From assembly GCF_054482525.1 (NCBI RefSeq), contig NZ_CM137006.1: DNA of 64,000 nucleotides. One strand, written 5' to 3'. This document shows, one piece after another, positions 6,734 to 62,217 of this stretch; within the stretch, counting starts at the first letter, position 1; every line of letters begins with the position of its first letter. The position numbers and the translations under genes were made by a program. The notes below the pieces were generated by a model. The model worked only from the letters and a program-made list of their open reading frames with translations. It was not told where the DNA came from and did no database searches.

Positions 6734-7867
6734 TTAAACCGTCAGCACCACACAGCTGTCCACTTCCCAGCACAAACGCACTTCGTCGCCCCAGGTCGGT
6801 AACCCTTTACGATGACGATGGGCGTTTTGTAGCTGGGCGCTAATCATCTGCCCACTTTTCAGACGAACGTGATACACCGAAAGATCGCCGAGATAGGCAA
6901 TGTGTATCACCTCCCCCACCGCGAAGTTACAACCATTGGCGGGCGGCTCTTCGCAAAGCATGATTTTTTCCGGACGCAGCGCTACGTGTACCGGCACGTT
7001 ATCAACCACTGAAGCATCTGCATCGACTTTCAGTGGGTGCACCAGTCCCGGCGAATAAAGCACCAGACCATCTTCCTGACGCTCTTTGAGTACACCTTCA
7101 AAGACATTAACCGAACCGATAAATTCAGCGCTATAGCGGGTGGTCGGATGCTCATAGATCTCTTCCGGTTCGCCAATCTGGACAAATTTCCCGCGATTCA
7201 TAATGGCGATACGCCCCGCCATGGTCATCGCCTCTTCCTGATCGTGAGTAACCATCACGCAGGTCACACCGACGCGCTCCAGAATATCCACCACTTCAAG
7301 CTGCATCCGGTCACGCAGCTTTTTATCCAGTGCGCCCATCGGCTCATCGAGCAGTAATAGTTTCGGGCGCTTGGCAAGGCTTCGGGCCAGTGCCACACGC
7401 TGTCGCTGACCGCCGGAAAGCTGATGCGGTTTGCGTTTGGCGAACTCCTGCATATGCACCAGCCCGAGCATCTCATTGACCCGGCTGGCAATTTCCGCTT
7501 TCGGCAATTTGTCCTGTTTCAGGCCAAAAGCGATATTCTGTTCCACGGTCATATGCGGAAACAGCGCGTAAGACTGAAACATCATATTGATGGGGCGCAG
7601 GTAAGGCGGTACCTGTGACAAATCGACGCCATCGAGCATAATCTGCCCGACAGAAGGTTGTTCGAAACCTGCCAGCATACGCAGCAGCGTGGACTTGCCA
7701 CAGCCGGATGCGCCCAGCAGCGCGAAGATTTCACCTTTGTAGATGGTCAGGCTGACATCATCCACCGCATGTTGACCATCGTAGGATTTGGTGAGGTTGC
7801 GGATTTCTAATAGCGGCGTCAGCGCCTTACGGGTTTTCGCCTGCGGGCGAGGGATAGCGTCATTCAC
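6734..7867 (-). CDS. potG: Putrescine ABC transporter ATP-binding protein PotG
   Basis: 377 aa; Walker A GASGCGKST and ABC signature LSGGQRQR. Confidence 0.9.
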   Translation of the reverse strand: MNDAIPRPQAKTRKALTPLLEIRNLTKSYDGQHAVDDVSLTIYKGEIFALLGASGCGKSTLLRMLAGFEQPSVGQIMLDGVDLSQVPPYLRPINMMFQSYALFPHMTVEQNIAFGLKQDKLPKAEIASRVNEMLGLVHMQEFAKRKPHQLSGGQRQRVALARSLAKRPKLLLLDEPMGALDKKLRDRMQLEVVDILERVGVTCVMVTHDQEEAMTMAGRIAIMNRGKFVQIGEPEEIYEHPTTRYSAEFIGSVNVFEGVLKERQEDGLVLYSPGLVHPLKVDADASVVDNVPVHVALRPEKIMLCEEPPANGCNFAVGEVIHIAYLGDLSVYHVRLKSGQMISAQLQNAHRHRKGLPTWGDEVRLCWEVDSCVVLTV

Positions 7868-7998
7868 GGCTGCTCTCCGGCATTGAATGTGTGCAAGCGC
7901 ACCATAATGGTGCGAATTGCCGGCGGGTGTGGTGCGCCTGTCCGGCAGATTAATTTGTCGCAGAACGTCTATTGCTGGCTATCTGTAGGCTGGAACCA

Positions 7999-8038
7999 TC
8001 CCCTCTCCCCTTTGGGGAGAGGGTTAGGGTGAGGGGAA
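7999..8038. repeat. Box C-like intergenic repeat, copy 1
   Basis: tcccctctcccctttggggagagggttagggtgagggg; a near-identical copy lies at 61451-61487. Confidence 0.5.
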
Positions 8039-8071
8039 GCCCCGTCATACCTGTTCAGCAATCTGAACTGA

Positions 8072-9184
8072 TTATTTTCCGCTCTTCACTTTGGTCCACG
8101 CGCGGGTGCGCACACGGTCTATTTTTGGATCCTGCACTTTCAGAGTGAACAACTTCGCACGAACGTCCGCCGGAGGATAAATCCCTGGATTATCACGCAC
8201 TTCCGCGCTTACCAGCGGCGTAGCTTCTTTGTTCGCGTTGGCATAGAACACATGGTCGGAAATATGCGCCACCACATCCGGGCGCAGCAGGTAATTCAGG
8301 AATTGATAGGCTTCGTCTTTATTTTTGGCATCCGCAGGCATGGCGAAGACATCAAAGAACGCCATCGCCCCTTCTTTCGGAATCGAGAACGAGACATTAA
8401 CGCCATTCTTCGCTTCCTTCGCGCGGTTTGACGCCTGCCAGACATCGCCCGCCCAGCCAATAGCGACGCAGATATCGCCGTTTGCCAGGTCGTTAATGTA
8501 TTGAGATGAATGGAAATAACGAATGTTCGGGCGCAGCTTTAACAGCAGATCGGTTGCCGGTCCGGTGTAATCATCTGCTTTAGTGCTGTTGGGATCTTTA
8601 CCGAGATAATTCAGCACGGTAGCAAACACTTCTTCCGGTGCATCAAGGAAAGAGACACCGCAGCTTTTCAGTTTTTCCAGATTTTCAGGTTTGAGGATCA
8701 AGTCCCAGCTATCGACGGGCGCGTTTTCGCCCAGCACCGCTTTGACTTTATCGACGTTATAGCCAATCCCGGTTGTCGCCCACATATAGGGCATAGCAAA
8801 TTTATTATCCGGGTCGTGTTTGGCAACCAACTTCAGCAGTTCCGGGTCGAGATTCTTCCACTCCGGCAATTTGCTTTTGTCCAGCGGCTGGAAAACTCCC
8901 GCAGTCAACTGGCGTTCAAGAAAGCTTGCTGACGGCACCACCAGGTCAAAGCCGGTGCTACCCGCCATTAATTTGCCTTCCAGTACTTCGTTAGAGTCGA
9001 AAACATCGTAGACGACTTTAATACCGGTTTCTTTTTCAAAATTGGCCACCGTGTCCGGGGCGATATAATCAGACCAGTTATAAATGTGGAGTGTTTTTTG
9101 TTCAGCCGCGAGCGTACCGACAGAGACGGCCATCAGAGCACCCGCAACCAGACCCGATAGCCATTTTTTATTTAAGGCGGTCAT
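8072..9184 (-). CDS. potF: Putrescine-binding periplasmic protein PotF
   Basis: Start at MTALNKKWLSG gives 370 aa with signal peptide. Confidence 0.9.
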   Translation of the reverse strand: MTALNKKWLSGLVAGALMAVSVGTLAAEQKTLHIYNWSDYIAPDTVANFEKETGIKVVYDVFDSNEVLEGKLMAGSTGFDLVVPSASFLERQLTAGVFQPLDKSKLPEWKNLDPELLKLVAKHDPDNKFAMPYMWATTGIGYNVDKVKAVLGENAPVDSWDLILKPENLEKLKSCGVSFLDAPEEVFATVLNYLGKDPNSTKADDYTGPATDLLLKLRPNIRYFHSSQYINDLANGDICVAIGWAGDVWQASNRAKEAKNGVNVSFSIPKEGAMAFFDVFAMPADAKNKDEAYQFLNYLLRPDVVAHISDHVFYANANKEATPLVSAEVRDNPGIYPPADVRAKLFTLKVQDPKIDRVRTRAWTKVKSGK

Positions 9185-14912: not shown

Positions 14913-14992
14913 GCCACTGCTTTTCTTTGATGTCCCCATTTTGTGGAGCCCATCAACCCCGCCATTTTGGTTCAAGGTTGGTGGGTTTTTTG
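14913..14992 (+). ncRNA. rybB: RybB small RNA (sigmaE-dependent repressor of outer-membrane protein mRNAs)
   Basis: gccactgcttttctttgatgtccccattttgtggagcccatcaacc...ggttggtgggtttttt matches the RybB sequence as I recall it; 3' hairpin plus U tract; lies between ybjL and rcdA as in K-12. Confidence 0.85.
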
Positions 14993-15010
14993 TTGCCTGA
15001 AATTTATCTA

Positions 15011-21004: not shown

Positions 21005-21716
21005 ATATCCTCCGGCATAGCCGGAGGTTTTTCAAATGCGCCTATAAGGCTCTCTTACCAGCCGCGCCCTAACAGGCGCACACGATCTGACATTTGCATC
21101 CAACTTCGTTACTTACGGCCCGTAAACGGGCTGCCCGGATAGGGAATCGATAACTGCTCTCCCATTTTATCCTCTTCAAGCTGGTGCTTTATGTAATCCT
21201 GTATCTTCGCCGTGTTCTTACCCACCGTATCGACGTAGTACCCTCTGCACCAGAACTCCCTGTTCCTGTATTTGAATTTCAAATCACCAAACTGCTCGTA
21301 AAGCATCAGACTGCTTTTCCCTTTCAGATATCCCATAAAGCCGGATACGCTCATTTTGGGCGGGATCTCCACAAGCATATGGATATGATCTGCACAGCAT
21401 TCAGCTTCCAGAATCCGTACACTTTTCCACTCACACAGCTTTCTCAAAATACTGCCTATTGCTCTACGCTTCTCTCTGTAGAACACCTGTCTTCGGTATT
21501 TTGGCGCAAAAACTATGTGATATTTACAGTTCCATCGGGTGTGCGCTAAGCTCTTTTCGTTCCCCATTGGGACCCCCTTTTGATTTCTTGTTTGACACTT
21601 GCAGTTGCCAGACCGCAAGGTGTTTTAACAAATCAAAAGGGGTTTTAATAACTGGCTTAAAGCTGAAAGCTTTCCGGAACCCCCAGCCTAGCTGGGGGTT
21701 TTCTGTGCACAATAAC
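21005..21716 (-). mobile_element. IS200 insertion sequence (IS200/IS605 family); ends approximate
   Basis: Encodes an IS200 TnpA; upstream of tnpA lie a perfect palindrome (aacccccagcctagctgggggtt, 21678-21699) and a second stem-loop over the ribosome-binding site; fills almost the whole deoR-dacC intergenic space. Confidence 0.8.
21109..21567 (-). CDS. tnpA: IS200 transposase TnpA (HUH/Y1 single-strand transposase)
   Basis: MGNEKSLAHTRWNCKYHIVFAPKYRR...HIHMLVEIPPK... 152 aa, intact. Confidence 0.92.
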   Translation of the reverse strand: MGNEKSLAHTRWNCKYHIVFAPKYRRQVFYREKRRAIGSILRKLCEWKSVRILEAECCADHIHMLVEIPPKMSVSGFMGYLKGKSSLMLYEQFGDLKFKYRNREFWCRGYYVDTVGKNTAKIQDYIKHQLEEDKMGEQLSIPYPGSPFTGRK

Positions 21717-60657: not shown

Positions 60658-61419
<762 letters not shown>

Positions 61420-61450
61420 TAACGCTACGCCTGTAAGGCGCACTGGCAGT

Positions 61451-61487
61451 TCCCTCTCCCCTCTGGGGAGAGGATTAGGGTGAGGGG
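61451..61487. repeat. Box C-like intergenic repeat, copy 2
   Basis: tccctctcccctctggggagaggattagggtgagggg; near-identical to 7999-8038, same orientation. Confidence 0.5.
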
Positions 61488-61557
61488 CGCAAACCCGCTC
61501 CGGGGCCATTAATTACCCTGAATTTGATTATTTACACCACGGTAACAGGAACAACAT

Positions 61558-62217
61558 ATGCAGTTTGACTGGAGTGCCATCTGGCCTGCCATTCCGCTTC
61601 TGATTGAAGGTGCCAAAATGACCCTGTGGATTTCAGTCCTCGGTCTGGCTGGCGGTCTGGTGATCGGATTGCTGGCAGGTTTTGCACGCACCTTCGGTGG
61701 TTGGATAGCCAACCACGTCGCGCTGGTCTTTATTGAAGTGATCCGCGGCACACCTATCGTCGTCCAGGTGATGTTTATCTACTTTGCCCTGCCGATGGCG
61801 TTTAACGACTTACGCATCGACCCGTTTACTGCGGCGGTGGTCACCATCATGATCAACTCCGGCGCGTACATTGCGGAAATCACGCGTGGTGCGGTGCTGT
61901 CTATTCACAAAGGTTTTCGTGAAGCAGGACTGGCGCTCGGTCTTTCACGTTGGGAAACCATTCGCTACGTCATTTTACCGCTGGCACTGCGTCGTATGCT
62001 GCCGCCGCTGGGTAACCAGTGGATCATCAGCATTAAAGACACCTCGCTGTTTATTGTTATCGGCGTGGCGGAACTGACCCGTCAGGGGCAAGAAATTATT
62101 GCCGGAAACTTCCGCGCCCTTGAGATCTGGAGCGCCGTGGCGGTGTTCTATCTGATTATTACCCTGGTGCTGAGCTTTATTCTGCGTCGTCTGGAAAGAA
62201 GGATGAAAATCCTGTGA
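61558..62217 (+). CDS. glnP: Glutamine ABC transporter permease GlnP
   Basis: 219 aa. Confidence 0.92.

Follow-up and report, generated by a model that had tools for sequence, protein, structure and literature searches.

A GC-rich element of some 38 bp had been noted twice in the 64-kb stretch of Escherichia coli DNA analysed here (the window), once in the spacer between potG and potF and once in that between glnH and glnP. This raises the question of which repeat family the element belongs to and whether it serves the two ABC-transporter operons whose first and second genes it separates. The window is 100% identical to E. coli strain PCN033 over 2.5 kb and runs in the reverse orientation relative to K-12.

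Position and Anatomy of the Two Copies

By direct reading and by a degenerate-core pattern search, exactly two matches were found in the window, at 8001–8036 and at 61452–61487, both on the plus strand. The 36-bp core searched was CCCTCTCCCCTNTGGGGAGAGGNTTAGGGTGAGGGG, i.e., CCCTCTCCCC-NNN-GGGGAGAGGN-TTA-GGGTGAGGGG, which had no match in 100 dinucleotide-preserving shuffles of the window and is not expected there by chance. The two cores agree in 34 of 36 positions; a base of the first loop and the final base of block 2 account for the mismatches. Over the span of about 38 bp given in the original prediction there are three differences, and the near-identical pair in shared DNA orientation was thus confirmed. 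The gene assignments were likewise correct, as the first copy has potG (6734–7867, minus strand) to its left and potF (8072–9184, minus strand) to its right, and the second copy is placed between glnH (60673–61419, plus strand) and glnP (61558–62217, plus strand). Both are intergenic, between annotated genes. The intervals first assigned to the element do contain both cores, but the shared unit proved to be larger. At potF–potG it spans about 7989–8044 (plus strand), as matches at other E. coli loci cover these 56 bp (query positions 50–105 of the query 7940–8075), which is the length of a BoxC unit, and at glnH–glnP it spans 61437–61519.

The potF–potG core (8001–8036, plus strand), a perfect type A copy, consists of block 1 CCCTCTCCCC (8001–8010), a loop TTT (8011–8013), block 2 GGGGAGAGGG (8014–8023), a second loop TTA (8024–8026) and block 3 GGGTGAGGGG (8027–8036). 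In the glnH–glnP core (61452–61487, plus strand), also of type A, block 1 (61452–61461) is followed by the loop TCT (61462–61464), block 2 GGGGAGAGGA (61465–61474), the loop TTA (61475–61477) and block 3 (61478–61487). Both copies accordingly show a pyrimidine block, a complementary purine block and a mirror purine block separated by loops within the range of 1–6 nt. An internal dyad of 9–10 bp had been proposed, and the stem is 10 bp long at potF–potG and 9 bp long at glnH–glnP. With block 3 set antiparallel to block 2, the 10-bp Watson-Crick stem of the potF–potG copy is matched by canonical purine-motif triads (G*G:C, A*A:T, T*A:T) in all ten positions. The glnH–glnP copy reaches nine of ten triads because its block 2 ends in A.

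Although the copies share their orientation in the DNA, they are oppositely oriented relative to transcription, since the pot and gln operons are read from opposite strands; the strand capable of the triplex is thus non-template at glnH–glnP and template at potF–potG. Both hairpins begin 32–35 nt past the stop codon of the gene for the binding protein (glnH and potF), and the RNA hairpins are predicted at about −30 and −23 kcal/mol, whichever orientation is taken. A further small hairpin, GTTCAG-CAAT-CTGAAC (8053–8068, plus strand), appeared in the terminator scan and in the spacer fold; it lies in the variable segment described below, next to the potF stop codon, and was flagged as terminator-like on the plus strand, antisense to potF. 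Small open reading frames over the elements were disregarded, as they are short and overlap a repeat that occurs in both orientations.

Identity of the Repeat

Both sites carry copies of BoxC, for which PIT element and TM-ECO intrastrand triplex motif are synonyms, and there is hardly any doubt about this identification. BoxC is an already known element, described between 1992 and 2000 and restudied in 2015, and no new name is needed. The motif CCCTC(G/T)CCCC-loop-GGGGAGAGGG-TTA/CCG-GGGTGAGGGG was given as the element "earlier described as BoxC" (Holder et al., 2015, PMC4666352), which Maher's group had found again as the PIT element (Hoyne, Maher et al., 2000) and which was later renamed TM-ECO (PMC4666352). 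Among the 23 K-12 copies in Table 1 of the 2015 study, entry 7 is identical to the potF–potG core in 35 of 36 positions (one base off) and entries 9 and 16 are identical to the glnH–glnP core in 34 of 36 (two bases off). The second loop TTA, which defines type A, is present in both window copies. The original prediction had named the Box C family, and these matches bear it out; the two younger names are synonyms rather than rival families, so that no other named family takes its place.

The unit was delimited in an alignment of 19 sequences, comprising 16 Table 1 copies from 11 K-12 loci, the glnH–glnP copy of K-12 and the two window copies. In K-12, the type A unit begins with a 14-bp left extension gcgcacNgacaGTC, continues with the 36-bp core and closes with GAAcag; its total of about 56 bp agrees with the BoxC length given in the two papers cited below. 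The left extension agrees with the type A consensus in 11 of 14 positions at glnH–glnP (see below) and in 7 of 14 at potF–potG, where GAA follows the core. Most K-12 copies have a stem mismatch (CCCTCGCCCC), whereas the potF–potG copy features T instead of the usual E. coli base G at core position 6, which makes its stem perfect.

The glnH–glnP copy is missing from the 23-copy table of Holder et al. (PMC4666352) though it is present in K-12. In the available parts of the main text and supplements of that paper, the potF–potG locus was not found named, and its accessible supplements gave no hit for glnH, potF or the glnH–glnP core variant. The RefSeq record of K-12 MG1655 (NC_000913.3) carries no BoxC or repeat features at either site or at known BoxC sites. 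The original 56-bp BoxC consensus reportedly goes back to Bergler in 1992 and to Bachellier and co-workers in 1996. In the original K-12 record, as reported by two papers, BoxC is 56 bp long (51–59 bp) and has 32–33 copies; the same two papers give BoxC, ERIC and PU-BIME as separate E. coli families.

In complete E. coli genomes, BoxC was found at 78,537 places in 5,408 of 5,426 genomes, single genomes having between 1 and 29 (median 16), and 78,489 of these places are chromosomal. The whole-genome search proposed with the original prediction yielded 19 family places in the source strain.

An Old, Partly Decayed Composite Between glnH and glnP

Virtually the same glnH–glnP spacer was found in 5400 of the 5426 complete E. 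coli genomes, among them K-12, where the copy lies at 847191–847225 on the minus strand and has the first loop TAT instead of the TCT of the window. Its surroundings in the window reveal more than a single unit. To the left of the core stands the extension GGCGCACTGGCAGTT (61437–61451, plus strand), which was compared with the K-12 type A upstream consensus above, and to the right a composite remnant (61488–61519, plus strand) was recognized by alignment with two-armed pairs. It consists of the inter-arm spacer CGCAAACCCGCTCCGGGGCCATTAATTA (61488–61515, ending in ...GCTCCGGGGCcAttAatTA) and CCCT (61516–61519), which is all that is left of an inverted type B arm, namely its first 4 nt. The pairs aligned were those of K-12 at fepB/entC, ygfF/gcvP, alx/sstT and hrpB/mrcB and the yijF/gldA pair of an O158:H23 strain (GCTCCGGGGCgAatAttTACCCTCAC...); five K-12 sites at which type A is paired with type B in inverted orientation have been described (PMC4666352). 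Since only the left extension, the core, the inter-arm spacer and CCCT remain, the glnH–glnP copy makes up the left half of a two-armed composite that has decayed; what remains (61437–61519) fills 83 of the 138 bases of the spacer. Thus, this copy is old, fixed in E. coli and partly decayed.

A Rare, Derived Copy Between potF and potG

The copy at potF–potG has a different history. It is carried by a strain-variable segment of 122 bp (7948–8069), delimited by alignments with K-12, the GTDB E. coli representative and E. albertii, which replaces 12 bp (CGCAGTCGTAGA, in potF sense) of the K-12 / E. albertii type of spacer and extends the latter from 94 to 204 bp. This filled spacer occurs in 33 of 5426 complete E. 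coli genomes (0.6%), the other 99.4% being without the copy. Moreover, species-representative genomes were scanned with the conserved C-terminus of PotF, which gave 99 orthologous loci, 91 of them with a complete potF–potG spacer (86–353 nt). No BoxC block, not even a single one, was found in these 91 spacers of other species. As the spacer is empty in K-12, the GTDB representative and E. albertii and free of BoxC in the 91 other species, the filled state is a derived gain.

The origin of the segment was followed through its non-BoxC part of about 85 bp, which had no match elsewhere in E. coli (distant-mode search), in plasmids or in curated phages. In metagenomes, an exact 27-mer from its unique flank retrieved two contigs, both in potG–potF context, one of which (OWJQ01001963.1) shares no more than 95.3% identity with the window over 2.8 kb. 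Hence, among E. coli genomes, plasmids, phages and metagenomes no donor was found, and the segment occurred only in potG–potF context. In the other carrier strains, the core has the usual form with the G mismatch. Furthermore, the window strain shows 13–14 extra synonymous differences in the 90 bp of potF adjoining the element, a cluster as expected for a recombination tract. On the simplest reading, we infer that a divergent Escherichia lineage gave rise to the segment or took it up, and that homologous recombination spread it. The copy would then be a recent gain in a minor lineage of the genus, brought in within a foreign 122-bp segment that replaced the spacer, probably through recombination with a divergent allele and with no clean local transposition. 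A target-site duplication was considered, as AAATAATC at the potF end resembles AAATTAATC at the far end of the insert, but in the filled spacer the 12 bp of the empty site are gone and not merely shifted; there is therefore no clean duplication, and the resemblance was rejected as evidence of transposition. Local variability between strains has been published for TM-ECO loci (PMC4666352), and the potF–potG site is an instance of it.

Structure and Presumed Neutrality

Taken as a whole, it is likely that the two sites hold structure-prone, largely neutral or selfish BoxC copies, of which the one at glnH–glnP is old and the one at potF–potG a recent gain by recombination. On balance, the copies also seem to have no dedicated role at glnH–glnP and potF–potG and not to be regulators of potFGHI or glnHPQ, a point that we hold with less assurance. 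BoxC is an intergenic repeat scattered over the chromosomes of enterobacteria and many other bacteria, in which the pyrimidine block and the following purine block of one strand pair to a GC-rich hairpin of 9–10 bp. The second purine block, a mirror of the first, can then enter the major groove as a purine-motif third strand, a triplex fold that arises only while the strand is single-stranded. We infer that such copies, both of which lie just past gene ends, are tolerated there as structure-prone intergenic DNA that is largely neutral or selfish.

The structural part of this explanation follows published work. The isolated BoxC strand forms a very stable intrastrand triplex according to CD and NMR, with Tm values of 70–82 °C for type A and type B oligonucleotides with and without the mismatch, and the full element gives 18 sharp imino signals in 1H-NMR, which fit a triplex and not a three-tetrad quadruplex (PMC4666352). 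In the presence of the complementary strand the triplex fold is lost, and in vivo DMS footprinting did not detect the triplex in the chromosome, as has been published. PIT elements had neither promoter nor terminator activity and no effect on RNA polymerase, and loci with the motif vary more between strains than control intergenic regions (PMC4666352). As judged from the K-12 map positions, the triplex-capable strand of both copies would be the K-12 minus strand in the clockwise replichore and hence the leading-strand template. Since this template is rarely single-stranded during replication, a replication-linked role at the two sites receives no support. Besides, we know of no in vivo function of BoxC demonstrated in thirty years.

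Nevertheless, some observations run counter to neutrality. The potF–potG core is identical in 36 of 36 positions, loops included, to one copy in Azospirillum, an alphaproteobacterium, and the three-block design recurs in at least 120 very diverse IMG/VR contigs. Such conservation at the sequence level across classes is not explained by neutral drift and suggests that the core has repeatedly been spread horizontally or that it has a sequence-specific partner. Both copies also occupy the classic position of functional REP hairpins. In addition, the strong but non-homologous hairpins in the glnH–glnP spacers of E. coli and relatives might be a sign that a hairpin is selected for and not just tolerated.

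Alternative Explanations

These observations lead to the question of whether the BoxC hairpin acts in the operon mRNA, where it might block 3'-to-5' exonucleases or uncouple decay in the manner of the REPs in malE–malF and hisJ–hisQ. More GlnH and PotF than membrane and ATPase subunits would then be expected, and the third block would be irrelevant in RNA. We regard such a role as unlikely, the chance that is left to it concerning mostly the glnH–glnP copy, for which it is possible. The distance of the hairpins from the stop codons and their predicted strength in either orientation speak in its favour, as do the glnH–glnP spacers of E. coli, Enterobacter hormaechei, Klebsiella aerogenes and K. 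pneumoniae, which contain non-homologous, equally strong structures (z about −2.8 to −3.2 vs. shuffles), that of Enterobacter hormaechei being a REP-like palindrome. The Enterobacter and Klebsiella spacers were taken from chromosome-sized records in the plasmid collection. Likewise, the yijF–gldA slot alternates between both kinds of repeat, with the BoxC pair of the O158:H23 strain exactly where K-12 has a REP pair. Separate control of the gln genes is known as well, as the small RNA GlnZ represses glnP separately from glnH and pairs near the ribosome-binding site of glnP, within the glnH–glnP spacer, according to published work. At potF–potG, however, the element is absent from nearly all E. 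coli genomes and from the 91 other species, and the empty K-12 spacer shows no structure beyond that of its shuffled versions (z −0.25); therefore, nothing requires the element there. Moreover, selection for a perfect RNA stem is made less likely by the stem mismatch of most K-12 copies, two of the K-12 sites are found in divergent promoter regions, and the published tests without terminator activity or effect on RNA polymerase (PMC4666352) do not fit well. Hairpin-rich repeats may, after all, merely be tolerated at the 3' ends of genes.

BoxC might alternatively be a still-active non-autonomous mobile element, the folded single strand of which is recognized by a trans-acting enzyme and copied to new intergenic sites, even across bacterial classes. 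The recognition site would be formed by the hairpin, the mirror purine block and the GCAC-bearing extensions, and the enzyme might be, for example, an HUH/Y1 single-strand transposase. Enzymes of this type move REPs and IS200/IS605. The breadth of the motif lends this idea some substance, as the core was found in a plasmid collection in Klebsiella, Rhizobium, Sinorhizobium, Azospirillum and others, with 10–30 copies each on some alphaproteobacterial megaplasmids. In the IMG/VR contigs mentioned above, counted by the signature of two purine blocks, the pyrimidine block stands upstream in 121 of 156 occurrences among the matches listed. The conserved GCAC-containing extensions lie outside the triplex blocks, the composites with two inverted arms resemble MITEs, E. 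coli genomes differ widely in copy number, and one copy was gained at potF–potG. If true, mobility would explain the core shared by E. coli and Azospirillum, the MITE-like composites, the gain at potF–potG and the sharing of slots by BoxC and REP. Nevertheless, neither of the two comparisons between filled and empty sites (potF–potG and yijF–gldA) revealed a clean insertion or target-site duplication. The potF–potG copy came with its unrelated flanking DNA of about 85 bp, and the composite at yijF–gldA replaces a REP pair. No associated gene is known, curated phage genomes are essentially without the element, and according to PMC4666352 there is no link to transposons, phages or plasmids and most E. 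coli copies are at conserved loci. Thus, mobilization by an enzyme recognizing the folded strand appears improbable, yet it is retained at that low level because the rules of triad formation alone do not demand such sequence identity.

Much less can be said for a G-quadruplex. The G-rich half of the element (GGGG-AGA-GGG-TTA-GGG-TGA-GGGG) would fold as an intramolecular quadruplex in DNA or RNA and act as the functional structure, a proposal to which we give very little credence. Both copies have four G-runs of at least three with 3-nt loops, except that the second run of glnH–glnP is only GG followed by A, and published CD spectra are compatible with a parallel quadruplex (PMC4666352). The imino signals described above contradict this fold, however, and the complementary C-block, which always adjoins, ties up two of the four G-runs in a very stable hairpin; in the glnH–glnP copy, one run is broken.

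Hardly any weight remains for the view that the elements act between the first two genes of each operon as intrinsic terminators or attenuators. Each copy does offer a strong GC hairpin in an intercistronic spacer, but on neither strand is either hairpin followed by a T/U run, the sequence past the stems being TTAGGGTG or, on the other strand, ATGGTTCC and AACTGCCA. The terminator scans called neither hairpin, and PIT elements lacked terminator activity in the published assays (PMC4666352). Neither copy is a terminator or a REP.

Finally, a chance similarity or membership in another named family (REP/BIME, IRU/ERIC or RSA), suggested by the GC-rich, palindromic and intergenic nature that the stretches have in common with REP, is practically refuted by the empty shuffles, the lack of relationship to the K-12 REP pair in the yijF–gldA slot, the separation of BoxC, ERIC and PU-BIME in the literature and the absence of any Rfam family above the gathering threshold in the whole window, where both spacers gave only sub-threshold generic hairpin matches at E ≤ 10.

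Significance of the Two Sites

The present analysis establishes how far both copies really extend, that the one at glnH–glnP belongs to a composite and that the two are oppositely oriented relative to transcription. It further adds the rarity and the derived status of the potF–potG copy and the sharing of intergenic slots between BoxC and REP. With its 204-bp filled and 94-bp empty spacers, potF–potG represents a natural allele pair within one species, suited to test effects on mRNA fate or genome stability, and glnH–glnP offers a fixed copy in an operon with separately regulated halves that is suited to the same test. Regarding the spread of repeats, BoxC, REP and others share intergenic slots across genomes, and the BoxC core can be identical across proteobacterial classes.

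Comparison With Known Systems

The window copies share with BoxC / PIT / TM-ECO, as described before, the three-block sequence, the second loop TTA, the intergenic position, the multicopy chromosomal occurrence and the local variability from strain to strain. They differ in that the potF–potG copy has a perfect stem and lies at a locus at which K-12 has none, and in that GGGGAGAGGA breaks one triad at glnH–glnP.

A REP is an imperfect palindrome of about 35–40 bp of the type GCCGGATG...CCGGCCTAC, and IRU/ERIC is an imperfect palindrome of 127 bp with a consensus of its own. REP/BIME elements resemble BoxC as GC-rich, palindromic intergenic repeats that often follow the first (binding-protein) gene of ABC-transporter operons, and they use the same slots, namely yijF–gldA in K-12 and glnH–glnP in Enterobacter. 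In sequence, however, they are unrelated; the BoxC pair and the K-12 REP pair of the yijF–gldA slot align only at scattered positions, which does not make the former a REP. REPs also lack the third mirror block, are present in hundreds of copies as opposed to tens of BoxC, and have a partner transposase (RAYT) and protein binders, none of which is known for BoxC.

A certain likeness exists to the Rfam family whalefall-1 (RF01762), which reads UCUCUCC-loop-GGAGAGA ... AGGGUGAGGAC and thus combines a hairpin with a purine tail mirroring its 3' arm. Both cores align to the entire whalefall-1 model, with 15.1 and 15.2 bits against a gathering score of 37, but in whalefall-1 about 24 extra nucleotides separate hairpin and tail. 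As the scores stay below the gathering threshold, the window copies are not members of this family. The boxC of the boxB-boxA-boxC antitermination signal of rrn operons has only the name in common and is an unrelated element in rRNA leader transcripts.

A structural parallel is given by H-DNA and mirror-repeat triplexes, which are built from the same R*R:Y purine-motif triads with the third strand antiparallel to the purine strand. In BoxC, by contrast, all three strands are provided by one DNA strand through a double fold-back, and its triplex therefore depends on single-stranded DNA instead of the supercoil-driven extrusion from a duplex mirror repeat.

Repeat content of the intergenic spacers

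In Escherichia coli, the same intergenic position can be taken by different repeat families. Between yijF and gldA, strain O158:H23 carries a BoxC composite, consisting of a type A unit and an inverted type B arm (positions 587-740 of the retrieved sequence L256), whereas K-12 features a REP pair in this slot (2140-2450 of L258), the flanks being identical in both strains.

In the glnH-glnP spacer of the window, a separate small hairpin (TACGCCTGTAAGGCGCA; 61426-61442) lies between the glnH stop codon, which it directly follows, and the BoxC unit; it differs from K-12 at two positions. The corresponding spacers of Enterobacter hormaechei (L261:1245-1337), Klebsiella aerogenes and K. pneumoniae (L262, L263) feature, after glnH, a non-homologous set of GC-rich hairpins which is different in each genus, with that of E. 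hormaechei being REP-like. The structure of the spacer reached a z of about -3 relative to shuffled sequences in all three species, as it did in E. coli.

Two RNAs of the window met the Rfam gathering threshold, namely the sRNA RybB (14916-14994, plus strand, 104.8 bits) and the Hfq-binding RNA STnc490 (21577-21700, minus strand, 146.1 bits); neither is related to the BoxC copies.

Surroundings and possible source of the potF-potG insert

The 3' end of potF (8120-8210) features 13-14 substitutions at third codon positions which are private to the window strain in comparison with two other insert-bearing strains. This cluster directly adjoins the BoxC segment and looks like a short recombination tract. 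The same insert between potG and potF was found in the metagenome contig OWJQ01001963.1 (L264), of which the surrounding 2.8 kb are only 95.3% identical to the window. The contig probably originates from a divergent Escherichia lineage, and the insert may stem from that lineage.

Occurrence in other replicons and sequence collections

The two Azospirillum megaplasmids compared feature 10-30 BoxC places each. The core in Azospirillum sp. TSH58 (L259:20003) is identical to the potF-potG copy at 36 of 36 positions, including both loops, and that in A. brasilense (L260:20003) departs from it in the first loop alone (TCT).

Additionally, at least 120 IMG/VR contigs labelled as viral (L005-L124) contain GGGAGAGG-N4-GGGTGAGGG; among the matches listed, most occurrences are preceded by the pyrimidine block, and three to five copies are present on some contigs. 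As curated phage genomes are nearly devoid of the motif (five weak matches), many of these contigs may represent prophage-flanking or misassigned host DNA. The PLSDB records CP125156.1, NZ_CP141089.1, NZ_OL790696.1, and NZ_CP134663.1 have sizes of 4.8-5.4 Mb and contain chromosomal genes, glnH among them. These entries of the plasmid collection are in fact chromosomes, so that "plasmid" counts obtained from it are too high for chromosomal repeats.

Resemblance to whalefall-1

The Rfam family whalefall-1 (RF01762) aligned over its full length to both window copies (8001-8036 and 61450-61487), with 15 bits at a threshold of 37. Its consensus resembles BoxC in combining a hairpin with a AGGGUGAGG tail in the same design; given this shared architecture, BoxC-type motifs may have a distant analogue in whalefall-1.
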